Below, in pieces: positions 6,670 through 44,251 of a stretch of 64,000 bases of DNA (positions within the stretch are counted from its first letter, which is position 1; each line of letters begins with the position of its first letter). The stretch is from Marinobacter sp. Lineage in GTDB: Bacteria > Pseudomonadota > Gammaproteobacteria > Pseudomonadales > Oleiphilaceae. The notes beneath the pieces are model-generated. The model ran no database searches. It saw only the letters and a list, made by a program, of their open reading frames with translations, and had not been told where the DNA came from. The stretch covers positions 592 to 64,591 of the forward strand of contig JABURI010000152.1 of assembly GCA_014762755.1 (NCBI GenBank), written 5' to 3'. The position numbers were made by a program, and so were the translations under genes.

Positions 6670-9432
<2,763 letters not shown>

Positions 9433-26824: not shown

Positions 26825-26969
26825 TCCCTGAAAACAGTCTGCACCTCAGTATATCGTCATTGTCGCAACCCCGTTCCAACCCTGCCCAAGCTTTCGACTT
26901 AAGCATTAAGTGTCGATAAAAGCGACTTATTCTTCTTGTGCATAAACTTAAGGATCACTAAACTGCGCC

Positions 26970-26983
26970 TTGACCTTAATCAA
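26970..26983. promoter_or_regulatory. FNR/ANR/DNR-type box 1
   Basis: TTGAC-CTTA-ATCAA versus consensus TTGAT-N4-ATCAA (one mismatch). Confidence 0.6.
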
Positions 26984-27110
26984 CTCAGCGAAAGAAAAGT
27001 CAGACAATTCCCCTCTCCTTAAATAGATGGCGAATAACTTGGTGTCCTCCGACTGGCGTACAGACCGGTCCGATTTTACGCATAAAAGCCTGCCAAATTC
27101 CGGTCAGGGT

Positions 27111-27124
27111 TTGACCGTTATCAA
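27111..27124. promoter_or_regulatory. FNR/ANR/DNR-type box 2
   Basis: TTGAC-CGTT-ATCAA, ending 55 bp before ATG 27180. Confidence 0.62.
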
Positions 27125-27179
27125 GACCTGACTTTCCGATCCGGATACAGCGTAAACCAGAAATTGCGAAGAGTAGATC

Positions 27180-28547
27180 ATGCCCGACAGAGCCATTAAC
27201 GAGGTGCTGGATGCTCCCAGTCACGATCGATCAGTGCCCTTGCTCTCGCTATCGGGTTTCGGGGTCGCTTTCGGTGAAAAAACAGTCCTCGCCGACATCA
27301 ATCTGGAATTGCCGGAATGCGGCGTTACGCTGTTGCTTGGGCCTAGCGGTACGGGCAAATCAACTCTGTTGAGAACACTCGCGGGGTTTAATGACGCCAA
27401 CCCTAACCTGAGAACCTGGGGGCGTGCCAGCTATCGTGGCAAGCCGCTCGACTCCACTGTCAAGCGTCCTGTCCTTGCTGCACAAAATGCCCGGCTGATG
27501 ATGGCCAGCATCCTGGAAAACATCGTTCATGATCTGCCCGGCAGAGGACACCTGTCTCCAAGGCAGCAGAGGGAACTCGCCGTAACCATGCTGGAATCCG
27601 CTGGCCTCCAGGAACTCGTCGACCGGATTGATGAGCCAGTCATACAGCTTGAGCTGGCCCAGCAACGTCACCTTGGCATCATGCGGCTGGCAGCAACCGG
27701 CGCCCCTCTGCTTCTAATCGATGAACCCTCGGCGAACATCAGCGAGGCAGACGCTGATCGAATACTCGAATTTATTGCTTCCAAAAGTGCCAGCCGCTCC
27801 GTTTTTCTGGCGGTGCATAACCAGATTCATGCTCGACAAATCGGCGGAGACGCAGTGTTGATAGCCGGTGGCATTGTCCAGGAAAAAGCACCGACAGACA
27901 CTTTCTTCTCGACACCGGTGACTGAGGCGGGAAGAGCATTCGTTCGTACCGGGTCGTGTTCGGTTCCTGCGCCAGACACGGACCCTGATGCACTGGACGC
28001 ATCAACCCCGCCCCCGGCAAAAACGCCCGCTGCCGCCCGAAATTTCGCGAACACCAACTTCGGGCCACGGGGGTTCCTCTGGCTCGAAAAAGGTCGGCTG
28101 GCCGGGATGCCAGGTCTGGGACTCTATGGCGACCTCGACGATGATTTGAAGGCGCTCCGGAACGTCGGAGTCACTACACTGATCAGCCTCACCGAAACAC
28201 CGCCTGACACAGCCAGAATGACCGGATTCGGAATCGAAAGCATCTGGTGCCCTTTCAGGGACGAGGCCGCTCCCGCCATCACTCAGGCAGTCGGTTTGTG
28301 CAAGCAGATCCAGGAGATCACCGGCAATGAAGGGATTGTTGCCATTCAGTGCTGCGCCGGTTTGGGGCGCACTGGAACCATCCTCGCTGCCTTTCTGATA
28401 TGGGAAGGCAGCGAGGCGTTGGATGCACTGGAGACAGTCCGCCAAATGGAGCCGGGCTGGGTGCAATCTGAAGTCCAGGCAAAGTTTCTGGAACGATATG
28501 CCCTGTTCTTAACCGGGCGAAACCACACAAGCAGACTAAAAAACTGA
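27180..28547 (+). CDS. ABC-type ATPase / CX5R (dual-specificity-like) phosphatase fusion, copy 1
   Basis: Walker A GPSGTGKS, Walker B LLLIDEP, H-loop VHN, degenerate signature LELAQQR; Pro-rich linker; PFRDEAAP loop and QCCAGLGRTGT P-loop. Confidence 0.85.
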   Translation: MPDRAINEVLDAPSHDRSVPLLSLSGFGVAFGEKTVLADINLELPECGVTLLLGPSGTGKSTLLRTLAGFNDANPNLRTWGRASYRGKPLDSTVKRPVLAAQNARLMMASILENIVHDLPGRGHLSPRQQRELAVTMLESAGLQELVDRIDEPVIQLELAQQRHLGIMRLAATGAPLLLIDEPSANISEADADRILEFIASKSASRSVFLAVHNQIHARQIGGDAVLIAGGIVQEKAPTDTFFSTPVTEAGRAFVRTGSCSVPAPDTDPDALDASTPPPAKTPAAARNFANTNFGPRGFLWLEKGRLAGMPGLGLYGDLDDDLKALRNVGVTTLISLTETPPDTARMTGFGIESIWCPFRDEAAPAITQAVGLCKQIQEITGNEGIVAIQCCAGLGRTGTILAAFLIWEGSEALDALETVRQMEPGWVQSEVQAKFLERYALFLTGRNHTSRLKN

Positions 28548-28583
28548 TCCAAATCAATTAAACCCAACTAAGCGGAGTTATTA

Positions 28584-28991
28584 ATGTCAAACCTCGATAA
28601 TACTATTCAGCAGGCCATTTCCACCATTCCGGAATGCCTGGCGGGGGGTTATGTGGATCTCAGCAGCGGGATGCTTCTTGGCATCAAGACTGTTGACTCC
28701 CATCCTCAGGAAGTTCTTGAAATGTTGGCCGCTGCAACGGCCGATCTTTTCCAGGGCCCAAACGTGGTAACAATTGAGAACATGTTCAAGAAGTCCCGAG
28801 GCCTGCCACTGGATGATTTCCACTACTTCCAGGAAATCATCGTCAATAGTGAGAACCTGATCCATATTTTCATGCGCACCAAAGAGAACCAGGACCATGT
28901 GGTTACATTTGTGTGTCGCAAATCCGCCAACCTGGGCATGGTTTTAACCAAAGCTCGCGCCGCCCTGCCTAAAGTGGAAGCAGCGCTGTAG
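28584..28991 (+). CDS. Roadblock/profilin-like small protein, type A copy 1
   Basis: IPECLAGGYVDLSSGMLL...EIIV....HIF...ANLGMV pattern; GGAG RBS; paralogue at 35292. Confidence 0.7.
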   Translation: MSNLDNTIQQAISTIPECLAGGYVDLSSGMLLGIKTVDSHPQEVLEMLAAATADLFQGPNVVTIENMFKKSRGLPLDDFHYFQEIIVNSENLIHIFMRTKENQDHVVTFVCRKSANLGMVLTKARAALPKVEAAL

Positions 28992-29059
28992 CCGTTACGT
29001 AGCGACAATTGACCCAAAGCATGAACTCGGGTTCACTGTCAGGGTTTGCAAACTAGAAG

Positions 29060-29461
29060 GTGAACACAATGGGTGATTTTGGTCAGCCACATCCGAAGGC
29101 CAGTGCCGCCCGCTCCATTCTCCGGGAACTCAATGCCTCCTCCTCGGAAATTGAAGCGTCCGCGACCATGACGACAGATGGCTACATCATTGGTGCTGTA
29201 CTGGGCACCACCACTGATGAAGATCGTTTTTCCGCCATGTGCGCTTCGTTGCTGGCTCTGGCTGAGCAGGCGGCCGACGAGATCGGTCGCGGTCAGATGA
29301 AGCAGTTATTGGTGGAGGGAACACAGGGGTTGATGCTTCTGATCCGGGCCGGCGACGACAAGGTACTGGCCCTGGCCGCCAAACCGACCGTCAACCTCGG
29401 TCGGGTATTCCTTGAAGCGCGTAAGTGTGCCGCCAAGATCGACCAGGTGATCAACGGTTAA
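29060..29461 (+). CDS. Roadblock/LC7 (MglB-like) protein, type B
   Basis: IEASATMTTDG, DEDRFSAMCASLLALA, EIGRGQMKQLLVEG..G, VNLGRVFLEAR; start may be ATG 29069. Confidence 0.88.
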   Translation: MNTMGDFGQPHPKASAARSILRELNASSSEIEASATMTTDGYIIGAVLGTTTDEDRFSAMCASLLALAEQAADEIGRGQMKQLLVEGTQGLMLLIRAGDDKVLALAAKPTVNLGRVFLEARKCAAKIDQVING

Positions 29462-29520
29462 GCTCTCTGGCTGACGTGAAATTGGCCGGCAAAAACTCCA
29501 GGGAGTGAAACTGCCTTGCC

Positions 29521-29538
29521 AGGGGGCAAAAGCCCCCT
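29521..29538. terminator. Hairpin between convergent genes
   Basis: AGGGGGC-AAAA-GCCCCCT. Confidence 0.55.
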
Positions 29539-29553
29539 CGCTTTCCATCGAGG

Positions 29554-32352
29554 CTATTCGGACAATTCCGGAAGCAGCTCCGGTTTTCCGAAATGGAAAC
29601 CCTGAAAATAATCCACGTTCATCTGCTGCAGTAACGTCGCAATATCTTCACTGTTCACAAACTCCGCAACGACCTTCGCATCGATCTTGTGAGCAAATTC
29701 AACGATGCTCTCTGTAATCAAACGACTCTTCTCGTCTTCCAGTATCCGCGAAATTATTGAGCCATCGATCTTGATAAAGTCCGGCTGAATTTCGATCAGA
29801 TAGGAATAGTTGGAATAGCCGCTGCCAAAATCATCGATTGCTATCTTCGAATTCCGGGCCCGAACCCCTTCGACAAACTGCTTGACCTTGGCATAGTCCT
29901 GAATGGATTCGGTTTCCGTGATCTCAAATATCAGGTTATGGCCACCGTGAAGCGAAAGCTGCTCCAGAATAAAAGCCGAGATGTCCGGATTTTCCATATC
30001 CTTGGCTGAGAGATTGACGCTGATGGAAAGATTCCGGGAAGACGCAAGGGAAATTGCCTCAGAGATCACCTTCCTGGTTATCTCCGGGTAATAGCGGGAC
30101 TGCTTCGCCAGGTCGAGAAATTGAAGGGGCGGAATGACCTCGCCATTGCGACCGATCATCCGTAACAGGGATTCGTATCGCTCCTCCACCACTCCGCCGC
30201 TTCCCGACACAATCGGTTGATAGAAACTGGTGAGTCGATTCTCCTGGAGAGCTTCTTTGATCTCATTCAGCCAGTAAATGTTCTCAGTGTGATCGAAATC
30301 TTCCTCGCTCAGATCCACCACCTTGTGGGCGATATTTTCCTGCTTGGCTTTTTGCAGTGCTGACTCAGCAAACGTTAACAGGCGCCCCTCTCCACGCCCG
30401 ATACCGAAGAAGAAATCCATGTCAAAGTATTCGCTATTGACAACAAGGGGTTTGCTCTGCAGCTGGGCTGCCAACTCCGAAATATAGCTACTGAAGTCGT
30501 TGTAGGTTATGGAACTATCCGGCAACAAGGCAAAGTGGGCACCATGAAGACGATAGACCGTAATACCTTCGATGGCACAGCGCTGCTCCAGTTCTGCAGC
30601 CAGCTCCACCAGGATGCGGTCTCCCATGGCAATACCGTAGTAGTCATTGAATGATTTGAAACTTCTGACATCCATCAGTGCTAGCTGCAAAGGTTGCAGG
30701 CGCTCGAGGTCCTCTATGAGCCTTGCCCGGCTCGGTAGCCCGGTCAGCTTGTCGGTTCGCTGCTGCGCCAGCTTGCTCTGGTTCAGGATGATCTCGGTAA
30801 TGTCGTTGCGGATGCTGATGAACTCCTCAATGTCACCCGCATGGTCCACGATCGGAACAATCGTGGTGTCGACGTAATAGAAGTCGCCATTTTTTTTGCG
30901 GTTCTTGATGGTGCCCTGCCAGACCTGCCGGTTCAAAATGGTGTCCCACATATCCCGGAACACACTCGCCGGCATGTCCGGGTGACGCAGGATCTGATGG
31001 GTCTTGCCGATCACTTCGTCTCTGGAATACCCGCTGATCAGTTCAAACAGATCATTGACATAGGTAATCCTGCCCTCCGGATCAGTCCTGGTCACGATAG
31101 CCGTCTGATCAAGGGCATGCTTGTACTGTTCCAGAAACTGGACCGAGTTGGTCAGATCCCTGGCTGTCGCATTTGCCAGATGCGTAAGGGAACGGAGTGT
31201 TGAGACCCGCGGGATCGATACTGACAAGTCTTTCGCAGGAAGCTTCGAGACATCACCCTTTTCAGAAAGGGTGACCAGCGTGGTAGTGATATTCAGCAGA
31301 CTGCAATCGGCCCCGGAAGTGAAATATTCGCCGTAAGTAAAGAACCCGGCGTTGGGACCCAATGAGCCAATAGCAGCAATCTCTGCCGAGATGATTGACG
31401 AGAGAAAGGATCTTCGCGCGGTGCACGAGTAGGTATACACTCCCTCGATCGGAAGTTGCCCGGCAAGCCGGTTGACGGTATTGCGAACGCCATCGGTAAT
31501 TGTTTCAACATCGGCTACCCCGAACCGAACACAGTCACCACACTCCAGCTTACCGGCGAATATCAATCCCCCGTCGTCAGTAATGCCCACCGGCGAGCGC
31601 GCCACCAGGAAATCCCCCTGGGTTCGCAGCAGAGGAAACTCCATAAGGGACCGCGGAATGTCCTGTGCAACATCTTCGCCAAGGTAATATTGATACACTT
31701 CCACCGCAGGCTGGTGATTCAGTTCGTATAGAACGTTACCCTTGGCACGAGTGACTTCAAGGGGTACGCCGATAGGCGTCCATTCGAGAACACAGTCGCT
31801 ATGGACTTCCAGTACCTCGCTTCGGAGAACCGCCAGCGCCACGCCTTCGTCATACAGACGATCACCTTCAATAACAAAAGTTCGCTCAAAACGGTTGTTA
31901 TCTCCGGCGTTCCCCCCGGCTATACACAACCCGGGCGCCGCAGCATTGAAGCCTTGGATGAAACTCTCCGGATTGTCCCGCAGACCGTTACCAAAAACGA
32001 GTGCAAGGCGGGCATCACTGTCTCGATATCGACGCCCCCAGGCCCATCCACTGGCATAGGACAAATCCGACGTATAGCCGGTCTCGACGGTCGTCGCCTC
32101 AAAACAGGAGAACGACAGCAAAATACGACCTTCCGACTGGCTACCGCCAAAAATCTCTCCACAGGTTGACGCCCCTGTTATTCGAAAATCCGGGAGCAAA
32201 TCATTGAGTATGCCCAGGAGCGTCCGGACATTGGTTTCGTCCTGGTCACCGGCAAATACCTGCACCAGGCCGGCCTGATCCGCGAGGCCGAGATCGCTGA
32301 CAAACTTCAACAATGATTCCTGATCCTGGCACAGGTGGTTATACAGTTTCAT
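29554..32352 (-). CDS. FIST - PAS - degenerate GGDEF - EAL c-di-GMP phosphodiesterase
   Basis: FIST N/C (GASTCGEI, AGGNAGD, YSCTARR, GFFTYGE); PAS (ISGYS..E.IGKTH.ILRHPDMP..F..MW.TI...W.G...N..K.G); YRLHGAHF replaces GGDEF; ESLLRM, EITETE, DDFGSGYS, KIDGS, AEFV, QGF. Confidence 0.9.
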   Translation of the reverse strand: MKLYNHLCQDQESLLKFVSDLGLADQAGLVQVFAGDQDETNVRTLLGILNDLLPDFRITGASTCGEIFGGSQSEGRILLSFSCFEATTVETGYTSDLSYASGWAWGRRYRDSDARLALVFGNGLRDNPESFIQGFNAAAPGLCIAGGNAGDNNRFERTFVIEGDRLYDEGVALAVLRSEVLEVHSDCVLEWTPIGVPLEVTRAKGNVLYELNHQPAVEVYQYYLGEDVAQDIPRSLMEFPLLRTQGDFLVARSPVGITDDGGLIFAGKLECGDCVRFGVADVETITDGVRNTVNRLAGQLPIEGVYTYSCTARRSFLSSIISAEIAAIGSLGPNAGFFTYGEYFTSGADCSLLNITTTLVTLSEKGDVSKLPAKDLSVSIPRVSTLRSLTHLANATARDLTNSVQFLEQYKHALDQTAIVTRTDPEGRITYVNDLFELISGYSRDEVIGKTHQILRHPDMPASVFRDMWDTILNRQVWQGTIKNRKKNGDFYYVDTTIVPIVDHAGDIEEFISIRNDITEIILNQSKLAQQRTDKLTGLPSRARLIEDLERLQPLQLALMDVRSFKSFNDYYGIAMGDRILVELAAELEQRCAIEGITVYRLHGAHFALLPDSSITYNDFSSYISELAAQLQSKPLVVNSEYFDMDFFFGIGRGEGRLLTFAESALQKAKQENIAHKVVDLSEEDFDHTENIYWLNEIKEALQENRLTSFYQPIVSGSGGVVEERYESLLRMIGRNGEVIPPLQFLDLAKQSRYYPEITRKVISEAISLASSRNLSISVNLSAKDMENPDISAFILEQLSLHGGHNLIFEITETESIQDYAKVKQFVEGVRARNSKIAIDDFGSGYSNYSYLIEIQPDFIKIDGSIISRILEDEKSRLITESIVEFAHKIDAKVVAEFVNSEDIATLLQQMNVDYFQGFHFGKPELLPELSE

Positions 32353-32714
32353 GTTGTCAGCGAAGCCTCGGTTGATAACGGGCGGGAATAAGGTAAGATT
32401 CCCAACCTAGGCAAATACCCATATTTAAAAAAAGGTTATTAAAACTGCCACTGAAATTTTAAGAACAAAATCAGAAAACACCAGCTCAAAACAAAGTTTT
32501 ACATTTGGCAACAAAATACGGCTTAACTGTTGCTAAACACGACATGTCGTATCTTGTGCGCCTGTTCAGGGCTACCTAGAGTATTGTGATGCTTCTGCAG
32601 CACGTTTTTCCAAAGATCCGCATCCGCGAGTAATTGCCCAGTTACTCAACCAGCCAACAACGACGTTGCTGGCCTGGGGCCGTCAAGAAAACTTTACCCG
32701 GACATTCATGGCGT

Positions 32715-33359
32715 ATGGATTCACAGACTCTCACTAACAAATCCCCGGATGCCTCTGTAGCAGCCGCCTATTTCAGTCCAGACGACTATCTGCTCAAGAC
32801 TCTGCAGCGGGCGGTCGCCAACAATCAGGACATTCACATAAGCACCGGGAACACTGGCAGCCTGACAATACTGAGTAGCCGCGGCGAGTATTTCACGGAT
32901 AGCCCGGACCTGCGCGCATTGCTCTGCCAGAGCCCGGATAACTGTCGCGTAAGGATCCTTGGCACCGGAGACCATCAGATCCCGCCGGAATCGAGAGTTG
33001 GGCGGAATATTGACGAGCTGATGTGGCAGGCTGCGTTCTACGTTTCTGATGGCCGGCTGATGGAAGGCTGCAACCAGGCCGACGTGATTCAACTGGATTG
33101 CTGGCCCAACCTGACGCGTCTGCCCCATACCCCCAACAGTTTCCGAATCCTGGCATTGCTTTCAAAACATCCCACCTCGGTGTTCTTTGCCTCCCGGTTA
33201 TTGAAAGTGCCCGCCAGCGAAATCTATCAGATCTACAGTGCAGCCAAGGCTGCAGGTCTCAGTCACGCCATAAACAGAAAGGCTGAAGAGCCCCGCCTGG
33301 AGCCTCATCGCAGCCAATCGTTGCTTTCGTCGCTGTTAAACAAGATTGGCAGGTTCTAG
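32715..33359 (+). CDS. GTPase-associated hypothetical protein (possible winged-helix-like C-terminus and amphipathic tail)
   Basis: ELMWQAA..GRL..LDCWPNLTRL core; ends SLLSSLLNKIGRF; 9 bp from the GTPase start. Start uncertain (TTG 32634 alternative). Confidence 0.65.
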   Translation: MDSQTLTNKSPDASVAAAYFSPDDYLLKTLQRAVANNQDIHISTGNTGSLTILSSRGEYFTDSPDLRALLCQSPDNCRVRILGTGDHQIPPESRVGRNIDELMWQAAFYVSDGRLMEGCNQADVIQLDCWPNLTRLPHTPNSFRILALLSKHPTSVFFASRLLKVPASEIYQIYSAAKAAGLSHAINRKAEEPRLEPHRSQSLLSSLLNKIGRF

Positions 33360-33368
33360 GAGAACGGA

Positions 33369-33902
33369 GTGGAACATAAAATTATCTTTACCGGCCCGGT
33401 CGGGGCTGGCAAAACCACTGCCATCGGCTCAATCAGCGACATTCCCGTTGTCAGTACTGAAAGCAATGCCAGTGACGAGGTGGCCAAACAAAAAGCGACG
33501 ACGACGGTTGCCATGGACTATGGCGTCATGAAGCTCGGAGACGGCCTGAAGGTTCACCTCTACGGCACGCCTGGGCAGGAACGCTTCAGTTTCATGTGGG
33601 ATATCCTCACCATTGGCGGCCTGGGCATCGTGATCCTGGTTGATAATGATCGCGAGGATCCGCTGGCCGACCTGGAATTCTATGTCCGTGCTTTCGAGAA
33701 GTTCATCAAAAAAAATGCTCTCGTCGTCGGTGTTACCCGCATGGACACGAAGCCCCGCCCGGGACTCTATTCCTACCATACCCGGCTCTCCGAGCTGGGT
33801 ATTCAGGCTCCTGTCTTTGAGGTGGATGCCCGCGAGCAAGTAGACGTCTCCATCATGCTTCAGGCGCTACTCGCCATGCTGGACCCGGGGGCGCAACGAT
33901 GA
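33369..33902 (+). CDS. Small Ras-like GTPase, MglA/CvnD (ATP_bind_1) type
   Basis: G1 GPVGAGKTT, G2 TTVAMDYG, G3 YGTPGQERF.FMW, G4-like TRMD, G5-like VDAR; GGAG RBS. Confidence 0.92.
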   Translation: MEHKIIFTGPVGAGKTTAIGSISDIPVVSTESNASDEVAKQKATTTVAMDYGVMKLGDGLKVHLYGTPGQERFSFMWDILTIGGLGIVILVDNDREDPLADLEFYVRAFEKFIKKNALVVGVTRMDTKPRPGLYSYHTRLSELGIQAPVFEVDAREQVDVSIMLQALLAMLDPGAQR

Positions 33903-35236
33903 CCCCGGGCGACTCGGCGGACTCCACCCCTCCGGTATTATCCCTGCGAGGGTTCGGCGTCGGCTTCGGAGAAAAGACCATCCTCGCCAGCCTCGACCTG
34001 GACATCCCCGACCGGCAGGTGGCCATCCTCCTCGGGCCGGCCGGAACCGGAAAATCAACGCTGCTCCGAACCTTGAGTGGTTATAACGATGCCAGCCCCA
34101 ACCTCAGGACCTGGGGCGAGGCAACCTATCTGGGCAATCCCATTTCCACCAGAGAGCGCCCGGCGCTTGTGGCCCAGAATACCCGCATGATGATGTCCAG
34201 CGTTCTGGAGAACATCATCCATGACCTCCCTGAGCGCCAGGGACTCTCCCCCCTGCAGCAACGGCAACTGGCAATACGTCTTCTGGACTCCGCCGGCCTG
34301 GAGGAACTCATTGAGCGAATCGATGAGCCGGTAGTCCACCTGGACCTTGCCCTGCAAAGGCACCTGGCCATCATGCGCATGGCGGCTACCGGCTCCAGAC
34401 TGTTAATGCTGGACGAACCAACCACCGGGCTCAGCGAGCCGGAGGCGAAGCGGCTATTGGGGTGCATCGCTGATGAAGGGCGAAAACGCTCGATCATTGT
34501 TGCCTTGCATAACCTGGGCCACGCGCGACAACTCGCGGGCAACATCCTCTTACTGGCAGGTGGCAACATTCAGGAAGTAACGCCCACCGAAGAGTTTCTG
34601 ATAAAGCCGGGCACCGATGCAGGGCGGGCGTTCATTCGATCCGGATCCTGTTCCTTGCCGGATCCCGATACGGATCCGGAAAGTCTTGATCCTGAGGCCC
34701 CCCGACCGGCTGTTATCCCGGCAAAGGCGAAACAGTATGTGAGCGACAGTTTCGGACCAAGGGGGTTCGTCTGGCTCCACAAAGGGTTATTGGCCGGCAC
34801 CCCCCGACCGGGCATCGTTCAGGATCTTGAGTATGACCTCAAGGCATTGCGCCGGGTCGGTGTAACAAACCTGATCACGCTGACCGAAACGCCACCTGAA
34901 GTCGAGGCGTTGAAAGCCTTCGGCATTGAAAACATCTGGTCCCCCTTTCCCGATATGGCACCTCCCACTGAGGCACAGGCGCTGGATCTCTGCGAAAAGA
35001 TCCACCAAATCAACAATGCCGGGGGCGTTGTGGCTGTGCACTGTCGCGCAGGCCTGGGAAGGACCGGAACCATCTTGGCCGCCTACCTAATCTGGGAGGG
35101 CGCCGAGGCACTGGAAGCATTGGAAGCAGCCCGGCGCATTGAACCGCGCTGGGTCCAGTCAGAAGCCCAGGCAGAGTTCCTGGAGCAATTCGCCCGGTTT
35201 CTTGCCGGGCGAAAACAGGCCGTACAGGTGTCTTGA
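33899..35236 (+). CDS. ABC-type ATPase / CX5R phosphatase fusion, copy 2
   Basis: GPAGTGKS, LLMLDEPTTGL, LHN, degenerate signature LDLALQR; LAGTPRPG, PFPDMAPP, HCRAGLGRTGT; ATGA overlap with the GTPase. Confidence 0.88.
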   Translation: MTPGDSADSTPPVLSLRGFGVGFGEKTILASLDLDIPDRQVAILLGPAGTGKSTLLRTLSGYNDASPNLRTWGEATYLGNPISTRERPALVAQNTRMMMSSVLENIIHDLPERQGLSPLQQRQLAIRLLDSAGLEELIERIDEPVVHLDLALQRHLAIMRMAATGSRLLMLDEPTTGLSEPEAKRLLGCIADEGRKRSIIVALHNLGHARQLAGNILLLAGGNIQEVTPTEEFLIKPGTDAGRAFIRSGSCSLPDPDTDPESLDPEAPRPAVIPAKAKQYVSDSFGPRGFVWLHKGLLAGTPRPGIVQDLEYDLKALRRVGVTNLITLTETPPEVEALKAFGIENIWSPFPDMAPPTEAQALDLCEKIHQINNAGGVVAVHCRAGLGRTGTILAAYLIWEGAEALEALEAARRIEPRWVQSEAQAEFLEQFARFLAGRKQAVQVS

Positions 35237-35291
35237 GATACAGCCACCAAATAAACGATAACAACACTATACAAGACAGGAGAATTCATCG

Positions 35292-35696
35292 ATGAGCCTT
35301 GAAGACGCCATTCAGAAGTCCATTACCGAGATCCCGGAGTGCCTTGCGGGGGGTTATGTGGATCTGACCAGCGGCATGCTGCTGGGTATTAAAACCGTCG
35401 ATTCCCACCCCCAGGAAGTTCTCGAAATGCTCGCGGCAGCCACAGCAGACCTGTTCCAGGGTCCCAACGTGGTGACCATCGAGAATATGTTCAAAAAAGC
35501 CCGCGGGCTTCCAATGGATGACTTCCACTACTTCCAGGAAATCATCGTTAACAGCGAAAACCTGATCCACATCTTCATGCGCAGCAAGGCAAATCAGGAA
35601 CACGTGGTAACCTTTGTTTGCCGCCGCACAGCAAACCTCGGCATGGTACTGACCAAGGCCCGTGCAGCATTGCCGAAAGTCGAGGCTGCTCTCTAG
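35292..35696 (+). CDS. Roadblock/profilin-like small protein, type A copy 2
   Basis: 119 of 134 residues identical to 28584-28991 by manual alignment; AGGAG RBS. Confidence 0.72.
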   Translation: MSLEDAIQKSITEIPECLAGGYVDLTSGMLLGIKTVDSHPQEVLEMLAAATADLFQGPNVVTIENMFKKARGLPMDDFHYFQEIIVNSENLIHIFMRSKANQEHVVTFVCRRTANLGMVLTKARAALPKVEAAL

Positions 35697-35727
35697 CAAA
35701 TCGGTATCTGGTTAACTGCCAGGTACA

Positions 35728-35755
35728 AAGCCAGTGCTGTCAGCAGCACTGGCTT
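35728..35755. promoter_or_regulatory. Perfect 12-bp intergenic stem-loop without U-tract
   Basis: AAGCCAGTGCTG-TCAG-CAGCACTGGCTT. Confidence 0.55.
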
Positions 35756-35785
35756 CCATGAATTTGCCGGAAGAGACACTGCTGT

Positions 35786-36646
35786 ATGTATACCATCGAA
35801 TATCAAGGCCAGAACTACCAATGCAGGGGTGACGAAACCATCCTGGAGGCCATGCTGAGGCATGGAGTCAAGTTTCCCTTCTCGTGTCGAAAGGGCTCTT
35901 GTCATGCCTGTATTCATGTTGCCCAAAAAGGACGTCTCTCGGAAGAATCCCAGAAAGGACTCGATAGCCAGAAAAAAGATGAGGGTTGCTTCCTACCATG
36001 TCTTTGCCGCCCTGTAGACGACATGGTGATTGCTGCTCGACCGAAGCGCACCGGAACCAGGAGCGCCACTTCGCCGGAGAAGAGCGAAAGTGACGTCGTC
36101 AGCCCGGATCCGGAGATGTGGCAGGCTCTCGGGGAAGGATCAGTGCTCACCGCGGTACTGGAAGATTTCTATGGAAGGGTGTACGACGATCCCCGCCTGG
36201 CACCGTTTTTTCATGGCGTAACCATGAGACGCGCAATCGAGAAACAGTACCTGTTCCTGCGACAGAAGTTCACAGGCGAGAAAGTCTACTTCGGTGACCG
36301 CCCTCGCAATGCCCATCACTGGATGGTGATCTCCAACGAGCTGTTTGACTACCGCGAATCCATTATGGTGGATTGCTTACGCCGTCAGGGTCTGCCTGAA
36401 CATCTGATTGCCCGTTGGCGGGCGTTGGAGAACAGCTTCCGCGGAGACATCGTCAAGGATAAAGCCTGGAACCGGAAAATCGGTGATATCGAAATCCCGG
36501 TTTCGGGCTTCGATGAGGTCACCCTTGACGTCGGCTCCCTTTGCGACAGCTGTGGCAACGAGATTGATGCCGGTGTCACGGTCCGCTATCACCTGAGGCT
36601 TGGTACCCTGTATTGTCCGGACTGCATGTACTCCATCGGGGAGTAA
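35786..36646 (+). CDS. 2Fe-2S ferredoxin - group I truncated hemoglobin - Cys4 finger fusion
   Basis: SCRKGSCHAC...LPC; LGEG..L.AVLEDFY.RVYDDPRLAPFF...Q..FL....G...Y.G....AH; CDSC...YCPDC. Confidence 0.82.
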   Translation: MYTIEYQGQNYQCRGDETILEAMLRHGVKFPFSCRKGSCHACIHVAQKGRLSEESQKGLDSQKKDEGCFLPCLCRPVDDMVIAARPKRTGTRSATSPEKSESDVVSPDPEMWQALGEGSVLTAVLEDFYGRVYDDPRLAPFFHGVTMRRAIEKQYLFLRQKFTGEKVYFGDRPRNAHHWMVISNELFDYRESIMVDCLRRQGLPEHLIARWRALENSFRGDIVKDKAWNRKIGDIEIPVSGFDEVTLDVGSLCDSCGNEIDAGVTVRYHLRLGTLYCPDCMYSIGE

Positions 36647-36766: not shown

Positions 36767-39697
36767 TCAGGGACTGACGTCAAATACTCCGTGCACCACT
36801 TCGTCACCATCAGCGTCCGTGATCACTGCGGTAATGACATGCTGGCCTGCCAATCCCTCAAAACTGAATCCGTACGCATCGCGCGGAGGCTTAGTAACCG
36901 TGCCCGCGAAATCCCAGGGGGCACGGTTTTCCACCTTGATCGGACTACCCAGCCGGTCCGGATCGTCCAGATAGAACGCCACTCTCTTCATGCCTTCAAT
37001 GTCAGGCACAAAGATGTACGCCTCGCCGCTCAAGCTTGAGCCGTCAAGGGGCACAGGATTACTTCGGTCCGCCGCCAGGGATACCGCAAGTGTGTATAAA
37101 GAGGGTTGGTCATAGACCAGACTGACCGGGACCGTCAGCTGCTCCCCCGTCTCCGCTTCAATCACGACAGCCGCCTGGTACTGGCCGGAGGAGAGCGCCG
37201 AGGCATCGGCGGTCAGGACTAGCGTTTCAGGTAGCACTCCGGTAGGGGACTCGACGCCCAGCCAGGCCGCCGTGCTGCGCGCGCTGTAGCTCGGGTTGCT
37301 GCCATCGGTCATCTGTATCAGGACATCCTGCTCGGCCAGTGACTGGGGCGGCGTTAGCCCGAACAAAACGCTGTCCGGGGTGGCATCCAGATTCGGGACG
37401 TCATTGGCCACCATGAATCCGGCCGACACCAGAACCTCAAGCCCCCCGGAAATCGTGAGGCGAGCGCCAAGTACGTGGCCACCGTCCGCCAACGCCCCGG
37501 TGTCATAGGGGTAAGCGGTATCATCGGCGGCGGTGCCGGCGAGATCGAACGGGGGCACATTCTCGGTCTTGGTGACAACGCCGGTACCGGTCGGATCGTC
37601 CATGTAAAAACGCACCTGGCTAACGTCGGTATCCGGACTGGTGAAAATGTATTGTTCACCCTGCAAGATGGTGCCTTCCAGGGGAACGGCTCCCGCCCGC
37701 TCGGGGCTGTTCGACACCCAGATTCCGTAACTGGAAGCGCCAACGCGCAACACCACCGGCACCCAGGTGGCGCTGTCCTCCCCGGCAGTGATCTGCAGGA
37801 TGCCACGGTACTCACCTACCGCCAAACTGGAGGCATCCGCCACTATCTCCACACTTGCCGGCGTCACTCCTGAGGCCTGTGACAGCGACAACCAGTCTGG
37901 AATCTGGGTAATTTCGAAGTCCAGTGCAGCGCCATCGCCACCGGTCACGTTCAGGCTTTCAGAAACTACGTCACCCGGCTCGGCCATTAGTGCAATCTGC
38001 CGAGGCTGCGCCAGCACCTCCGGCGCACAGCCATTCACGTCATACCGGACCCGATCTATCTGTAGCGGCACCGAACCATCGCCTTCAACTCCGAACACAT
38101 CCACATCAAGCGTGCCCGTGGCCGTTACTGAAAGATGAGCGAAATGGTGCAACGTATTGTTCCGGAATACCGTCCAGGCAGGCGGCTCGGACGTACGCCA
38201 GGGCGAGAAGTCGAGAGAGATATTGCTGAGCTTGCCACCGGGGGCAACCTTCAGCCAGCTCACACCATCCTCTGGGCCATAACAATGGCGATTGTCTGAC
38301 GTTGGCGTGTTCGTGGCAGGCACATTGACCAGCGGATAGGTTCGCTCATAGGACTGATCGTGGGCAGTGAGCACCACCTGGACACCTGCAGCTTCAAAGA
38401 TCGGCCCGAGCTGGCCTCGAAGTGGCAGGGCAGAGGAATGATTGGTGCCTTCTGAGAATGGGGCCGCGTGCAGATAAGGTACCAGCCAGCGCTGGCCACG
38501 GCCTTTGGCAGCTGCCAGATCGGCGCTCAGCCAGTCCAGCGCATCCTGTGGAAGTTGCTCGTACTCATTCAGTCCGAAGATCGATACAAAATGGACCTCA
38601 CCAGCATCAAAACTGTACATCCGACGACCATTCCAACCCTCGGGTGTCACAAAATAATTGACCCAAGTACCAAACCCCTCCCCCAATAGCACTTCATGGT
38701 TACCGTAGGTCGGCATCATCGGGCTTTGACTGGCGATTGCCGACATCTGGTCAAACCAGGCGGCAATAGAGCGCTCGAGGGTGACATAGCGCTTATCGGT
38801 ATTGAAATAGGCGTAGTCACCGCCCAAAAGCACCAACCGCGGATTGCGCCGGGCAATCTCGAGAATCACCTGCTCTGTTCCGGTGGCCAGCCCGTCAAGA
38901 CGACCGACCAGGCCGGTATCGGCAACAAAAACTGCATCAAAGTCCGCGGGCCCCGGTGCAGGTGCGGTATAACTCTCGTATACCCGACTCCAAACATTCG
39001 GGGCAAGCGCCGCACGAAACTCATAACGCGTATCAGCAAGCAGGCCCTCAAGGTTGACCAACAGATACTGACCATCAGCTGTGGAGTGACTGACGGTACC
39101 ACTGGCCTGCTCCCAGGCACTCTCACCAGCCCGACGGTAGCTCACCGTCGCCGGGGTTCCCGCAAGCGGCGAGAACCACATCACTGCCAGCGATCCGGAA
39201 GGATCGCCTTGCCAACCGGTGTGCAGCTGCCCTGCCTCACCGCCCGGCTCCGGTGGCGGCTGGTTGGCAATCTGCATCAGCCCTTGAAGGGTCTGTACCA
39301 CCGAACCACCCTGGTACAACTCGGCACTGACCCGGTAGTTGCCATCCACCAGGTTGCGGGTGTCGTAAGGGTAGGCCAGATCATCGGGGGTGGTGCCGGC
39401 AAAATCCCAGGGTATGCGGTTTTCAGTCTTGACGAGGGTCCCGTCCAGATAGAAACGTACCTGATCCGCCGCATTGGCATCGCCCACGAAGATATACACC
39501 TGGTCCTGTAACGGCGCCGTCTCAAGGCTCTGGGGCGAGCTTCGATCCGATGACAGCGACACCAGTAACTCGGCGGCAGATACACGCAGTGGTATAAGGG
39601 CCAGCACCAAAAACAGGATGAAGAACCATCCAGTAGCACACGTCAATGAACGGGCGTGGCGGGGGAAAGTAAAGATGCGCCGAACCATAACGACCAC
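36767..39697 (-). CDS. Secreted purple-acid-phosphatase-like metallophosphoesterase with repeated beta-rich domains
   Basis: Signal peptide ending VSA; FN3-like PAP N-domain; ADTG, GGDYAY, GNHE, YLH, AHDQSYER; three KxENxxP(W/F)D(F/L)AGT repeats; two BACON-like segments. Start may be ATG 39688. Confidence 0.8.
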   Translation of the reverse strand: MVVMVRRIFTFPRHARSLTCATGWFFILFLVLALIPLRVSAAELLVSLSSDRSSPQSLETAPLQDQVYIFVGDANAADQVRFYLDGTLVKTENRIPWDFAGTTPDDLAYPYDTRNLVDGNYRVSAELYQGGSVVQTLQGLMQIANQPPPEPGGEAGQLHTGWQGDPSGSLAVMWFSPLAGTPATVSYRRAGESAWEQASGTVSHSTADGQYLLVNLEGLLADTRYEFRAALAPNVWSRVYESYTAPAPGPADFDAVFVADTGLVGRLDGLATGTEQVILEIARRNPRLVLLGGDYAYFNTDKRYVTLERSIAAWFDQMSAIASQSPMMPTYGNHEVLLGEGFGTWVNYFVTPEGWNGRRMYSFDAGEVHFVSIFGLNEYEQLPQDALDWLSADLAAAKGRGQRWLVPYLHAAPFSEGTNHSSALPLRGQLGPIFEAAGVQVVLTAHDQSYERTYPLVNVPATNTPTSDNRHCYGPEDGVSWLKVAPGGKLSNISLDFSPWRTSEPPAWTVFRNNTLHHFAHLSVTATGTLDVDVFGVEGDGSVPLQIDRVRYDVNGCAPEVLAQPRQIALMAEPGDVVSESLNVTGGDGAALDFEITQIPDWLSLSQASGVTPASVEIVADASSLAVGEYRGILQITAGEDSATWVPVVLRVGASSYGIWVSNSPERAGAVPLEGTILQGEQYIFTSPDTDVSQVRFYMDDPTGTGVVTKTENVPPFDLAGTAADDTAYPYDTGALADGGHVLGARLTISGGLEVLVSAGFMVANDVPNLDATPDSVLFGLTPPQSLAEQDVLIQMTDGSNPSYSARSTAAWLGVESPTGVLPETLVLTADASALSSGQYQAAVVIEAETGEQLTVPVSLVYDQPSLYTLAVSLAADRSNPVPLDGSSLSGEAYIFVPDIEGMKRVAFYLDDPDRLGSPIKVENRAPWDFAGTVTKPPRDAYGFSFEGLAGQHVITAVITDADGDEVVHGVFDVSP

Positions 39698-40657: not shown

Positions 40658-43600
40658 TCAATAAAGACTTCGCGGTATCCGGTACCCCGCCAGCAGCTGT
40701 TGCGTGAAGGGGTTGGTCGTGCTGGCGGCATGCAGGCGGTACTTCATTTCGCCATCGTCCACCCGAAACCTGACATCCACGGCATTACTGCTGACTCCTG
40801 TGATGTCTGCCTGGCCCAACATCCTGAACAGGGCCCAGGGGCCGCTCTCGGAGATGCTCCGTGGCGAGCGGTTGACCTGGACTGGTACCAACGTAATGCG
40901 GGTTTCCACGGCATCTCGCAGCGTGTTGGGCCATATCAGCGGAATGTTCTGGCGCGGGCCATGGGAGAACTCCACCAGCTGGCCATCGATATTCGCCACC
41001 GAGCGCCGTTTGTTGTTGCTCAGGTTCAGGGGTTCCAGGGCAAACTCCACGTCCAGCGTACCACTGCGGGTGAAGAACGCCTGTCGAATCTGCCGGGCCC
41101 GATCCAGCGCGGCGACCACATCCCGTCGTACCAGGCTGGCCCGGCGGGCGTCGCCCACATGCTCCGGATGGTCTTCGAGGAACAATCTCAGGTTGTCGTT
41201 GTAGAAGGTTTCCAGAATGCCATCCGGGGCGAAGAAACGCTCGAAATCCTGCAGTGCAGCGTCACGCCCTGCGCCCTGGGTGAACGGATAGTGCCGGGCC
41301 AGATTCTGCTGGAACGGCTGGTAAACCTCGCGATACCAGTCCCGCTCCAGCTGTGCCACGGCACTGTCCAGGACAACCCGCCAGCTTTCTGTGGCCAGGC
41401 GGTTGAGTATCCGGTTCAGGAGTGCCGGCTGATGGCCGGCCATGCGCTGCAGGGTAAAGATGGGGTCGGCCCCCTGCAGGCCCATACGGGCACGGGCGGC
41501 GCTCAGGGCAGCTTTGCCAGTATCCGGCGATTCCTGGATATTGCGCATGTATTCATGCAGCTCCGTCACCACCAGCATGACTTCCTCCAGGCCAGAGCGC
41601 TTTTCGCCCTGTTTGCGGGTGAGCTGGTTCAGGTCGCTGAACTGGCGCTCGATGTCCTGCAGCATGCGGTAATGGGGGGACTGCTCAAGCAATTTGCGTG
41701 CGGCTTCCGCTTCGCCTTCACCTACCGGTATCAGGCGGGTGTTTTCCCGCACCTGGGCCAGCAATCTGGCCAGCGGCTGGTGGCCACTGGTCAGGCTGTC
41801 GAGAATACGGACCCCGTGGTTCAGGTCCTCAAACCGATGGATATCCAGCCGGCTCAGCGCCGTGCGCCAGGCCTCGGCATAGTGCTCAGCGTACAGGGTC
41901 TGCAGACTGGCCAGCAGCTCGGCCTCATCGGCCTTGCTGAAATCAACATCATCCCGGCGGCCCAGCACCCAGGCGTCAACTAAGGCCAGTTCGGTGACCG
42001 ATCCGGATTCCCGCAGGAACCACTTTTCCAGACCTTCCCGGGTCAACAGTGCCGGAATCGAGAGCGGATCCTGTGCAGACGGCACATCCTCGGCAAGCGG
42101 TTCGCCATAACTGTCCAGGCGTGTGAACACCGTGGAGAACGCCGGGCCGGAGCTGCGGGCCAGTTCCAGCGGCGTCGGGAAATCACGGCTGGCCTCGTTC
42201 TCCAGCTCACGGTACACGCGGTCTGAGGTGCTGATACGGCCAAGCTCATGCTGTGCCCATTCGACACTGCTGCGGAAAGGCGCCAGAGCCATCGTGGCGG
42301 TGGAGTCGCCGTTAGCTGCCAGGTCCGAAAGGTCCGTGTGGGCCATGGCGTATTGCAGGTGCCCGTATAGACGATTCTGCACATCGCGCTGGCCGGGGAA
42401 CCGGGCCTGCCAGTACTCACGCATGTAACCGGACACAATGTCGGTACGGCGGCCGCTGGCATCGTACAGCATCCGGAGCACGCGCAGGTGTTCGAGCCGC
42501 TCTGTGCTGTTATCCGGCGCCTGTCCCATTTCTTCCATCACCCCGAACATCAGCGCAGGCAGATATTGATAGGCCAGCATGTTCAGGTAGGCCTTATCCA
42601 CTTCCGGGCCCACCTTGTGCCCCTGGTACAGCCCCATATCGGTGACCAGTGGCCACTCCTTGCGGTAATCGCCGAAGGCCAGGGTAGCGTCCCGCAGCTC
42701 ATCCAGCGGTTGCAGCAGATTACGGCCAGTGGTGTCCGGCTCGTAGCCAACCGGCTGCCAGTCATTGAGATAGCTTTTGACCCGACTTTCCACCTGGGCG
42801 GCCGCTTCGGCATTCTGAAGAAAATAATGCTGCCAGCCTGCTGTTATGCCCGCACCGGCGGCCAGGGCCACCACGGCGGCAACGGCGACCCGGCGATGAC
42901 GCTGGCGCACCACCCGCCGGTTATCACCGGCCAGGCCCGCCTCCGGATAGATGATCCCGGGGAACAGGCCCTTGGTGAACAGGCTCGCAGACTGGCCGCC
43001 GCGCTGGGCCGGTTGGATCGGGTCCGACATCTGGTAGTTCCGGGCGGCGGCCGAGACGAAGGCATCCTCAGGCACACCTTCCTGCAACACCGAGGTCAAG
43101 TAGGTGCCGCGTACCAGCGCCGGTGTGGAGAAGGCATCCGCCGACAGCAAATCGGTCAGGAACTGCTCCATGGCCGTCTTCAGGCCCGCCAACTGGCGGG
43201 TGAACGAATAGGCCGCTGCCCGTTCTTCGTTATCACGGGTGTTGGCCAGCACGTCCGGCAGGCGTTCAGTGAGCTCATCCACCATATCGGCGTAACGCTC
43301 GGCAAACTGTTCCAGCCACTGGTCCTGATCCTGCTGGCCGTCCAGCCGGAAGGTGAAACCCAGCGCCTTGTCTTTCTCGGCTTTGCTGAGGGTACGCACA
43401 AAGGGCGCAAAGCCATACATCAGGTCCATCTTGGTGAAGGTCACATACACCGGCAGGCGGGACCCCAACTGTTCCATCAGCTCCCGCAGGCGAGTGCGCA
43501 GGAGAATGGCGTGGGCTTCACGCTGTTGTTCGTTGGCGGCACTCAGGCGGGCAAGATCCACGGCCAGGACGACGCCGTTGAGCGGCCGCTGGGGGCGACT

Positions 43601-44251
43601 GCGCTCCAACCAGGTTATAAAGTGGTTCCAGAGCCGGCTCTGGATTTCGCCGGTGGCGCCCTCCCCCTGGTTCTGGCTCAGCAGTTCGCCATCCGGGTCG
43701 ATCAGGACACCGTTGTCGCCAATCCACCAGTCAAAACTGAACGGGTTACGGTCGCCACGGTTGTTACGGGTGACGTTGGTCAGGGTATAGGTTTGCCCGG
43801 CACGCTGAATCAGGCTGGTCTTACCGGCATCTTCCAGGCCCATGACCAGATACCAAGGCAGACGGTACAGGTCCTTGCGACCCGGCAGATTGCTTTTCAA
43901 CGCCTGCAGTTGTCGGTCCAGCAGCCGCTGTTGACGACGCTCCATGGGCAGAATCGGGTCTTCCTGCTCCCGCTGCTCCTCGGCTTTGGCCTTGTTCACC
44001 TTACCCAGGCGACGGGCCAGCATGGTGCCCCAGACAATGACCACCAGCAACACCACCCCCAGGGTAACCAGCGCACGCATCTGCCAGGCCATCAGGGGAT
44101 AGTCTCCGTTGATTTCCAGGCGTGGTCCCAGCCACCAGGTGGCCACCAGTAGGGCGACCATACCCAGAGCCAGGGTGACGGGAGCGGCACTGCGGATGTA
44201 GGGCAGCAGCCAACGACCAATGAGTAATCCTTTTCTCCACATGGTTTCCAT
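40658..44251 (-). CDS. tssM: T6SS membrane complex subunit TssM (IcmF/VasK)
   Basis: N-terminal TMs; YRLPWYLVMG..AGKTSLI, RPQRPLNGVV, RLPVYVTFTKMDL, GPWALFR. Confidence 0.95.
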   Translation of the reverse strand: METMWRKGLLIGRWLLPYIRSAAPVTLALGMVALLVATWWLGPRLEINGDYPLMAWQMRALVTLGVVLLVVIVWGTMLARRLGKVNKAKAEEQREQEDPILPMERRQQRLLDRQLQALKSNLPGRKDLYRLPWYLVMGLEDAGKTSLIQRAGQTYTLTNVTRNNRGDRNPFSFDWWIGDNGVLIDPDGELLSQNQGEGATGEIQSRLWNHFITWLERSRPQRPLNGVVLAVDLARLSAANEQQREAHAILLRTRLRELMEQLGSRLPVYVTFTKMDLMYGFAPFVRTLSKAEKDKALGFTFRLDGQQDQDQWLEQFAERYADMVDELTERLPDVLANTRDNEERAAAYSFTRQLAGLKTAMEQFLTDLLSADAFSTPALVRGTYLTSVLQEGVPEDAFVSAAARNYQMSDPIQPAQRGGQSASLFTKGLFPGIIYPEAGLAGDNRRVVRQRHRRVAVAAVVALAAGAGITAGWQHYFLQNAEAAAQVESRVKSYLNDWQPVGYEPDTTGRNLLQPLDELRDATLAFGDYRKEWPLVTDMGLYQGHKVGPEVDKAYLNMLAYQYLPALMFGVMEEMGQAPDNSTERLEHLRVLRMLYDASGRRTDIVSGYMREYWQARFPGQRDVQNRLYGHLQYAMAHTDLSDLAANGDSTATMALAPFRSSVEWAQHELGRISTSDRVYRELENEASRDFPTPLELARSSGPAFSTVFTRLDSYGEPLAEDVPSAQDPLSIPALLTREGLEKWFLRESGSVTELALVDAWVLGRRDDVDFSKADEAELLASLQTLYAEHYAEAWRTALSRLDIHRFEDLNHGVRILDSLTSGHQPLARLLAQVRENTRLIPVGEGEAEAARKLLEQSPHYRMLQDIERQFSDLNQLTRKQGEKRSGLEEVMLVVTELHEYMRNIQESPDTGKAALSAARARMGLQGADPIFTLQRMAGHQPALLNRILNRLATESWRVVLDSAVAQLERDWYREVYQPFQQNLARHYPFTQGAGRDAALQDFERFFAPDGILETFYNDNLRLFLEDHPEHVGDARRASLVRRDVVAALDRARQIRQAFFTRSGTLDVEFALEPLNLSNNKRRSVANIDGQLVEFSHGPRQNIPLIWPNTLRDAVETRITLVPVQVNRSPRSISESGPWALFRMLGQADITGVSSNAVDVRFRVDDGEMKYRLHAASTTNPFTQQLLAGYRIPRSLY

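Follow-up and report, generated by a model that had tools for sequence, protein, structure and literature searches.

Does a bacterial small GTPase take its signal from a haem protein encoded in the same locus? The question is raised by a 64,000-nt stretch of DNA from Marinobacter sp. (contig JABURI010000152.1; the whole stretch is called the window here, and all positions follow its numbering). In it, nine genes encode a Ras-like GTPase and its partner protein, three roadblock proteins, two fusions of an ABC-like ATPase with a phosphatase, a ferredoxin-globin protein and a FIST phosphodiesterase. By their motifs and neighbours the GTPase, the partner and roadblock B are a Group 3 MglA system, which is a known class. 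The cassette added to this core, comprised of the fusion, roadblock A and the iron-sulphur/haem ferredoxin-globin, is the new part as far as the literature that we found goes. We consider the chances about even that the whole is a cytoplasmic switch responsive to oxygen (O2) or nitric oxide (NO). The genes of this module are as follows.

27180..28547, + strand: fusion A, ABC-like ATPase / DSP-type phosphatase, 455 aa (ORF, Pfam).
28584..28991, + strand: roadblock A copy 1 (A1), 135 aa, roadblock fold with an inserted helix (model, Foldseek).
29060..29461, + strand: roadblock B, MglB-type with DG pair, 133 aa (PF03259, E 8.6e-13).
32715..33359, + strand: Group 3 MglA partner protein, short form, 214 aa (profile match).
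33369..33902, + strand: small Ras-like GTPase, Group 3 MglA type, 177 aa (motifs).
33899..35236, + strand: fusion B, ABC-like ATPase / DSP-type phosphatase, 445 aa (Pfam, motifs).
35292..35696, + strand: roadblock A copy 2 (A2), 134 aa (model, Foldseek, profile).
35786..36646, + strand: 2Fe-2S ferredoxin - group I truncated globin - Cys4 (zinc-ribbon-like) protein, 286 aa (Pfam, alignment).

In a check of the window, all nine open reading frames (ORFs) were found where a preliminary description of this DNA had placed them, as was the ATGA overlap of the GTPase and fusion B genes, read in the sequence at 33899-33902. Its domain calls were confirmed by Pfam, which finds ABC_tran and DSP/PTP in both fusions, Robl_LC7 in roadblock B, and Fer2 and Bac_globin in the globin protein, but it had missed a degenerate GGDEF domain in the FIST protein and the Cys4 tail of the globin protein. 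Its count of three roadblocks stands in part: roadblock B has the family match and roadblock A has the fold in its model, but the latter has no family match and does not look like a canonical MglB. Gene spacing and kept gene order suggest an operon structure, in which the five genes from the partner to the globin are operon B. There is no permease in the locus, and the highest 19-residue hydropathy is at most 1.45 for eight of the proteins and 2.0 for one strand of the GTPase. This supports a soluble module, as had been proposed.

The GTPase carries GPVGAGKT, TTT (no Arg finger), GTPGQ, TRMD and DAR motifs, its G4 element TRMD being without Lys. Among 55 aligned rows T45 and T46 are invariant, the third motif is GTPGQ in 44/55 and GAPGQ in 11/55, and G5 is DAR in 36, DGR in 12 and DPR in 6. 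Group 3 MglA systems were catalogued computationally in 2014 by Wuichet and Sogaard-Andersen (PMC4316618), who describe GTPases of Groups 2 and 3 as having no G2 Arg, a GTPGQ motif, a G4 without Lys and DAR. The same paper describes Group 3 systems of beta- and gamma-proteobacteria as made up of an MglA, one or two MglB and a protein in which receiver and winged-helix parts are predicted. The likeness to MglA that had been proposed stands with Group 3 as the closest class (PMC4316618), but not with the polarity system of Myxococcus. The window GTPase has neither the intrinsic Arg finger nor the TVPGQ of Group 1 MglA, the Myxococcus type.

The partner protein matches the 365-aa partner of a GTPase locus without fusion, L161, in a profile comparison (probability 99.2, E 8.4e-20). 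It is without the N-terminal ~130 aa, about a third, of the long form, which are receiver-like, and its start ATG is retained in the relatives L001 and L002. Its C-terminal part is weakly winged-helix-like (VIA Z 3-6 to winged-helix chains). The partner model had no Foldseek match at E<=0.001, and the profiles of the partner and of roadblock A had no useful match among PDB sequences. Kinship with a subunit of SEA/GATOR1, the best VIA match at Z 6.0, was rejected and taken as a common winged-helix arrangement.

Roadblock B, with D40 and G41 invariant in 47 aligned rows, is the sole MglB-type gene in the locus and lies 4 kb from the GTPase gene. Only roadblock B looks like a canonical MglB; roadblock A looks tied to the phosphatase. 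An orphan roadblock is found on another contig of the same genome (G000:C268:9859-10233; E 2.5e-14 to the roadblock B profile), and small ORFs with an N-terminus resembling it are present 3' of the operon in L010, L201, L202 and L205.

The two fusions are 60% identical to each other and belong to a large family: of 7999 candidates, at least 1400 are relatives at E<=1e-60. In the ABC domain K52 (Walker A), Q93 (Q-loop), D172/E173 (Walker B) and H204 (H-loop) are invariant in 59 rows. The LSGGQ signature is present in 0/24 rows of one fusion alignment, and the 12 commonest variants among the 59 rows are of the form LxLxxQ. Because the Walker A, Walker B, Q-loop and H-loop residues are kept and the signature is replaced, established ABC biochemistry suggests ATP binding with impaired dimer-type hydrolysis. 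No cognate permease was found among the nine genes or the recurring neighbours identified around the fusion. The names given automatically to homologues ('putative toxin', 'BtuD', 'ABC transporter') were set aside as domain-based labels, as there is neither signature motif nor permease. The phosphatase domain has C382 and R388 of a CX5R motif and the acid D352 invariant in 59/59 rows. In fusion B both sites are intact (HCRAGLGR, DMAPP). Fusion A keeps the CX5R and Asp residues, with diverged residues adjoining them (QCCAGLGR, DEAAP), and at about 0.15 against L001 it has the highest ratio of nonsynonymous to synonymous substitution rates (dN/dS) of seven genes compared. A simple recent tandem duplication is not borne out: the 60% identical copies are not sisters in the fusion tree, where fusion A groups with single-copy relatives at a weak support of 0.66. 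An old duplication and the gain of a second copy would both fit.

The small gene that follows each fusion encodes roadblock A. It has no Pfam or NCBIfam match, yet its model (pLDDT 91) has a roadblock fold, with Foldseek probability 1.0 and TM 0.70 to 3kye and MglB (E 1.6e-8 to 3kye and 2.8e-7 to the MglB 3t1r; another MglB, 6hjm, is among the top matches). Its profile matches that of roadblock B at a probability of 75.6 over 51 columns. It has 2465 relatives, and its mean column identity is 75% against 62% for the GTPase; S38, T51 and S88 are invariant and Y80 and T121 near-invariant. The two copies in the window are 88% identical, and the dN/dS of A1 against L001 is about 0. Thirty-five homologues are longer, and they include a DSP-type phosphatase in the same chain in 15, an Arf/MglA-like GTPase in 2 and DUF4388 in 3. 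The phosphatase fusions, 15/35, argue that roadblock A belongs to the phosphatase; its first tie appears to be to the phosphatase and its second to GTPase modules. Roadblock A is joined in one chain to a DSP phosphatase, Arf/MglA-like GTPases, DUF4388 or receiver domains in P0244-P0259, P0265, P0266, P0246 and P0271; among the chains with a DSP phosphatase, one is from Cognatiyoonia and one has a Dynamin_N-type domain. Megaplasmids of Ralstonia solanacearum (L210:5974-7727; 7 records, 40% identity) likewise have the fusion with a 135-aa gene after it, annotated there as ABC transporter-like or hypothetical.

What kind of globin completes the cassette? Its best sequence matches in the PDB are cyanoglobin, THB1 and HbN, all group I truncated globins, and residue positions were assigned by alignment with cyanoglobin. 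The window protein has HisF8, TyrB10 and PheCD1, as expected of a group I truncated haemoglobin, with TyrB10/GlnE11 as in group I; it also has LysE10, and it ends in the CxxC...CxxC (Cys4) domain. In 108 globin-Cys4 sequences (72 full-length matches among the 150 listed and 36 from loci), HisF8 is present in 107, TyrB10 in 105, LysE10 in 104 and each of the four Cys in 104-107. The combination of 2Fe-2S, FAD, NAD and globin domains is found in 47/108, each of these with a FAD motif of the RxY/FS type. There is no NAD domain in 55/108, among them the window copy, which has the 2Fe-2S domain only. Presence of the NAD domain changed 22 times on the tree against 36 with shuffled labels, a count in which some short forms may be partial gene calls. 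The reductase part has often been gained or lost while globin and Cys4 are kept together, a pattern that suits a sensor. In THB1, THB2 and THB4 of Chlamydomonas the sixth haem ligand is LysE10, but not in ferrous THB10 and THB11 (PMC7082302). Four long proteins (P0276, P0277, P0316 and P0358) have 6-12 tandem matches to the truncated-globin profile. Immediately 5' of the globin gene there is a further feature.

35728..35755, + strand: 12-bp hairpin 5' of the globin gene (stem kept in L001, L002, L208).

The stem sequence of this hairpin is changed in L001, with small changes in L002 and L208, and the pairing is retained.

How widely are these genes kept together? We surveyed 90 loci, of which 10 are from genomes and 80 are the best among 397 metagenome matches to the window fusion, and counted each gene only at loci with enough flank. 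Roadblock A was found within the downstream limit of 600 bp from the fusion in 61/66 loci; in three of the other five it lies upstream or a little beyond the limit. Roadblock B was present in 37/47, the globin gene downstream in 30/36, the GTPase gene upstream in 56/69 and the partner in 48/59. The usual form is a single operon in the order partner, GTPase, fusion, A, B, ferredoxin-globin. The two-part form, with the fusion, A and B in one part and all but B in the other, was seen in the window, L001, L002 and L208. Within the genus, roadblock A is present in 12/190 other Marinobacter genomes. A genus-level set of 12 loci, from the wide flanks of 10 roadblock A genomes and from L001 and L002, has the five core genes in 12/12 and the globin in 9/12. 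Glyoxalase-like/DUF2621 proteins recur beside the module in both this and a distant family (L065:7623-8261, L102:6128-6784, L156:1720-2355), and CxxCxxCC proteins recur in L004 and L064.

The distant family, f62, was examined in 24 loci that are mostly of one family (within L156-L183), with genes labelled by scanning one or two members of each cluster with Pfam. These loci have related GTPases with several roadblocks, A-like in 17/24, and the ABC-phosphatase fusion is found in none of them. There are metallophosphoesterases in 14/24, ABC1 atypical kinases in 3/24, ODP (a di-iron protein) in 7/24, protoglobin in 3/24 and double globins in 2/24. At least one O2 binder is present in 9 loci, 8/14 with a metallophosphoesterase and 1/10 without. 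The f62 genomes are kin, so this is one independent case and not nine. A T2SSE/PilB-type ATPase is found in 7/24. Examples of the f62 cassette are L160:3293-9027, L176 and L157.

Is the module controlled by O2 or NO? Two sequence features lie 5' of fusion A.

26970..26983, no strand: distal FNR/ANR/DNR-type box TTGAC-N4-ATCAA, 196 nt 5' of fusion A (motif scan).
27102..27133, no strand: inverted repeat enclosing a proximal FNR-like site at 27111-27124 (motif scan, comparison with relatives).

The preliminary description had two FNR-type boxes here, and both sites exist (26970 and 27111), but only the distal one is kept in close relatives: L001, L002 and L208 have a perfect TTGAT-N4-ATCAA, with differing spacers, at the corresponding position. 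The proximal site was rejected as a conserved FNR box, its left half being TTGAA in L001 and L002, both of which keep the flanking repeat. This repeat is more likely a longer operator or a leader hairpin than a second FNR box; its folding z of -1.45 is not significant. At up to 2 mismatches the FNR consensus has 20 matches over the window, against 14.9 +/- 3.9 expected, which is chance level. The 3.4-Mb genome has 26 copies of the exact TTGAY-N4-RTCAA, and 0.33% of random 520-bp windows contain one. Against this background, an exact box is present upstream in 6/12 of the genus-level loci. Among them the single-operon relatives L200, L206 and L203 have it 94, 168 and 481 nt upstream, that of L203 being in a shared divergent region. 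None of the six other genus-level loci has an exact box, nor is there one before operon B. In the window's genome the same exact box precedes a NarK-family gene, a hemerythrin gene and a cytochrome c/COX1-family pair, which we read as norCB, and Crp/FNR-type helix-turn-helix genes are present, as are NarK-, NnrS- and nor-type genes. In one distant locus a Crp/FNR-family gene lies divergently upstream of the operon (L079:7582-8355) with a one-mismatch box between; the same box is in L084.

Taken together, these features suggest the following route from signal to GTPase, each interaction step of which we infer from sequence. The 2Fe-2S domain would keep the globin haem ferrous, with electrons from the built-in FAD/NAD domains in long forms or, in the window, from an outside reductase. 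O2 or NO would displace the distal LysE10 and alter the surface of the globin and Cys4 domains. The altered globin, together with ATP on the signature-less ABC domain, would gate the phosphatase. Roadblock A might be an adaptor or a substrate of the phosphatase, coupling it to the MglB-type roadblock B, the probable GTPase-activating protein (GAP). The state of the GTPase would act through the winged-helix-like partner, either as an output or as an exchange factor for guanine nucleotides (GEF). MfpC of the actinobacterial systems is reported to be a GEF (PMC11343762), and by analogy the partner could be one. The FNR-type box precedes the part with the only MglB encoded in the locus, so low O2 or NO would raise the supply of GAP and phosphatase and might thereby push the GTPase towards its GDP state. 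The split arrangement predicts that the probable GAP is under FNR-type control and the GTPase is not.

Several points weigh against a gas-responsive switch. LysE10 is no guarantee of hexacoordination (PMC7082302), the long form of the globin looks like a self-sufficient NO dioxygenase, and the hairpin 5' of the globin gene may hold back read-through or make the upstream mRNA more stable. The metagenome loci were picked by similarity to the window fusion and close kin are therefore over-represented. When 400 genomes were drawn evenly from the phylum, the fusion was found in 6/400, with roadblock A adjoining in all 6, and only 2 of the 6 have the fusion beside a GTPase. The GTPase family is present in 49/400 genomes, mostly without the fusion, and the globin family in 1/5 of the fusion genomes tested, on a different contig. 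(The first scan for fusions took 4 candidates per genome and found five; the sixth, G278, was added later, and a scan for roadblock A served as a check.) By these counts the fusion and roadblock A are the tightest unit and the globin link is confined to one broad lineage, so that the globin gene is the recurring neighbour expected of it in the lineage sampled in our survey but not across the phylum. Similarly, the FNR-type boxes, first proposed as a link to O2 or NO, are present in half of the Marinobacter-type loci, but no exact box is found upstream of 42 distant loci, 9 of which have a one-mismatch box.

Could the globin instead be a detoxifying NO dioxygenase, co-regulated with the GTPase module or its output rather than its sensor? 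The 47 homologues with a complete ferredoxin, FAD and NAD set and the RxY/FS-type motif agree with this, as do the TyrB10/GlnE11 pair shared with group I, where GlbN of M. tuberculosis has high NO dioxygenase activity (PMC7082302), and the NarK-, NnrS- and nor-type genes of the host. Yet more than half of the family, with the window copy, is without the NAD domain, the Cys4 tail is nearly always kept, and in f62 the place of the globin is taken by ODP and protoglobin, which have no reductase. We regard detoxification as unlikely, if not strikingly so. The fusion and roadblock A might also be an autonomous two-gene unit, a sensor of ATP or of a phosphorylated metabolite whose phosphatase would act on a small molecule and which would join GTPase operons only in some cases. 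In G193, G318 and G372 there is no GTPase within ~7 kb of the pair, and in G181 none within 1.5 kb; the pair is the part that the window has twice; and the best NCBIfam match of the ABC domain, far under the cut-off, is PstB, with PTP-SAK and Tc-R-P the best matches of the phosphatase. This account seems unlikely to us, given a GTPase directly upstream in most of the surveyed loci, the ATGA overlap in the window and the fusion of roadblock A to GTPases elsewhere. As for a switch of pilus or motility polarity resembling that of Myxococcus MglAB, in which the extra genes would be minor modulators, it could draw on Snodgrassella, which has a Group 3 MglA and in which mutation of an orphan mglB altered colony-edge soft-agar motility and gut colonisation (PMC11112851), the only experimental report on a Group 3 organism that we found in the literature. 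The PilB-type ATPases of f62 point the same way. With no Arg finger or TVPGQ in the GTPase, no recurring pilus gene among the clusters identified around the fusion and the module in only 12/190 genomes of the genus, polarity control is very unlikely.

The preliminary description had made the FIST gene, which lies between the two parts, a component of the system, and had pointed out that some FIST proteins (NosP) are haem NO sensors. The region between the two parts contains two features.

29522..29537, no strand: short GC hairpin where the roadblock B and FIST genes converge, a probable terminator (sequence, fold).
29554..32352, - strand: FIST-PAS-GGDEF(degenerate)-EAL protein, 932 aa, probable cyclic di-GMP (c-di-GMP) phosphodiesterase (Pfam, motifs).

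Its Pfam domains are FIST, FIST_C, PAS, GGDEF and EAL; the GGDEF motif is degenerate (HGAHF), and the EAL motifs ESL, DDFGSG, KIDG, EFV and QG are present. In favour of an integral NO- or haem-sensing output, the gene lies intact between both parts in the window, L001 and L208, with a dN/dS of 0.11 against L001; in addition, non-FIST GGDEF-EAL genes lie downstream of the operon in 5/28 long loci, by which a loose c-di-GMP link recurs. Among 25 long loci, however, only 2 have the FIST gene, both near-identical relatives and one a deletion remnant: in L002 only short remnants are left (7824-8453) beside two intact module parts. Nor is a likeness to NosP borne out: the protein scores 51.4 bits against NosP model NF041558, whose cut-off is 450, and it is fused to PAS-GGDEF-EAL instead of standing alone beside a kinase. 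NosP has a C-terminal His as haem ligand. Within its first 370 residues the window protein has His only at 6, 184 and 213, by count in the unaligned sequence, and its FIST domain has no relative among PDB sequences. An integral role is highly improbable, and on distribution the gene is a local add-on, an optional neighbour of the module.

A bolder account of the fusion is that it is a bifunctional kinase/phosphatase, the signature-less ABC domain phosphorylating roadblock A, with its conserved S38, T51, S88, Y80 and T121, and the CX5R site removing the phosphate, both controlled by a self-reducing hexacoordinate globin. We think this quite unlikely. If true, a haem gas sensor would be driving cycles of phosphorylation on a GAP complex, and this would be a three-tier G-protein pathway of proteobacteria resembling those of eukaryotes. 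Of such a design f62, with its ABC1 kinases, metallophosphoesterases and ODP or globins beside genes like roadblock A, would be a second build.

For the gas-responsive switch the interest lies in what it might supply. Group 3 MglA systems are found in many beta- and gamma-proteobacteria, and we found no paper that names their input signal or target. The subtype described here offers as candidate input a haem protein that has an electron feed of its own, and as candidate relay an ATP-binding domain of transporter origin fused to a phosphatase. If correct, two well-known folds would each have a new role, the ABC domain in signalling and the roadblock through its tie to a phosphatase. The proteins are small and soluble and can be purified from marine bacteria that are harmless. 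We found no description of the fusion, roadblock A and globin subtype in a literature coverage that leaves out most subscription journals, and Table S2 of PMC4316618 could list such neighbours.

The locus differs from the rest of the genome in composition: its GC content is 54%, against 59% genome-wide and 60-63% in the flanks. The GTPase, partner and globin genes are single-copy in the 82%-complete assembly. Loci with fusion B 94% identical come from Marinobacter sp., homologues are on record from M. orientalis, M. guineae and M. salinus, and by a rough count the seven genes compared with L001 have dN/dS of 0-0.15, indicating purifying selection. Scans of the window for sigma-70 promoters and terminators were not above shuffles. 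Convergent with the globin gene is a gene for a 976-aa purple-acid-phosphatase/metallophosphoesterase with BACON and Ig-like domains (36767-39697, - strand), also found in L001 and L002 and not at the same position in L208. Further on, at 40658-44251 (- strand), lies a 1197-aa protein that we take to resemble TssM/IcmF of type VI secretion.

How does the locus compare with known systems? It is alike to the Group 3 MglA systems in its GTPase motifs, an upstream partner that is weakly winged-helix-like, a coupled MglB with DG and the order partner-GTPase-...-MglB (PMC4316618). It differs in being set in two parts, in a partner without the receiver-like N-terminus, and in the fusion, roadblock A and ferredoxin-globin, which are not mentioned in the main text of PMC4316618, where 'phosphatase' and 'globin' have 0 occurrences. 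With the Group 1 MglA-MglB of Myxococcus and Thermus it shares a roadblock fold and a Ras-like GTPase, but it has no Arg finger, no TVPGQ and no receiver-domain regulator in the locus. The actinobacterial conservons/AGPS (CvnA-D, MfpB/C/D) have a similar GTPase class, a roadblock and a small accessory protein, and optional accessory proteins that include a cytochrome P450 (PMC13343842, PMC11343762). Unlike them, the window, from another phylum, has no CvnA-type histidine kinase, no HATPase or kinase domain being found in any of the nine proteins by Pfam or NCBIfam; it has a phosphatase fusion and a second roadblock family instead. The parallel drawn in the preliminary description, of a phosphatase where conservons have a kinase, is an analogy only. 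The FIST protein resembles CdpA of V. cholerae in joining FIST-FIST_C to EAL (PMC8846402), and differs from CdpA and NosP in its extra PAS and its failure against the NosP model. With flavohaemoglobin and the group I truncated haemoglobins THB1 and GlbN, the globin family shares HisF8/TyrB10 and, in long relatives, an FAD/NAD reductase, but it has a 2/2 fold, an N-terminal 2Fe-2S domain and a C-terminal Cys4 domain, and the reductase is often absent. HGbRL of Methylacidiphilum infernorum is a globin-roadblock fusion with LysE10 as sixth ligand and a proposed sensor (PMC4476040); like the window module, it links a globin to a roadblock, has LysE10 and is proposed to relay a signal. HGbRL is a 3/3 globin fused to the roadblock and lies outside a GTPase operon (PMC4476040), whereas the window has a 2/2 group I globin, joined to 2Fe-2S and Cys4 domains and encoded by its own gene within the operon.

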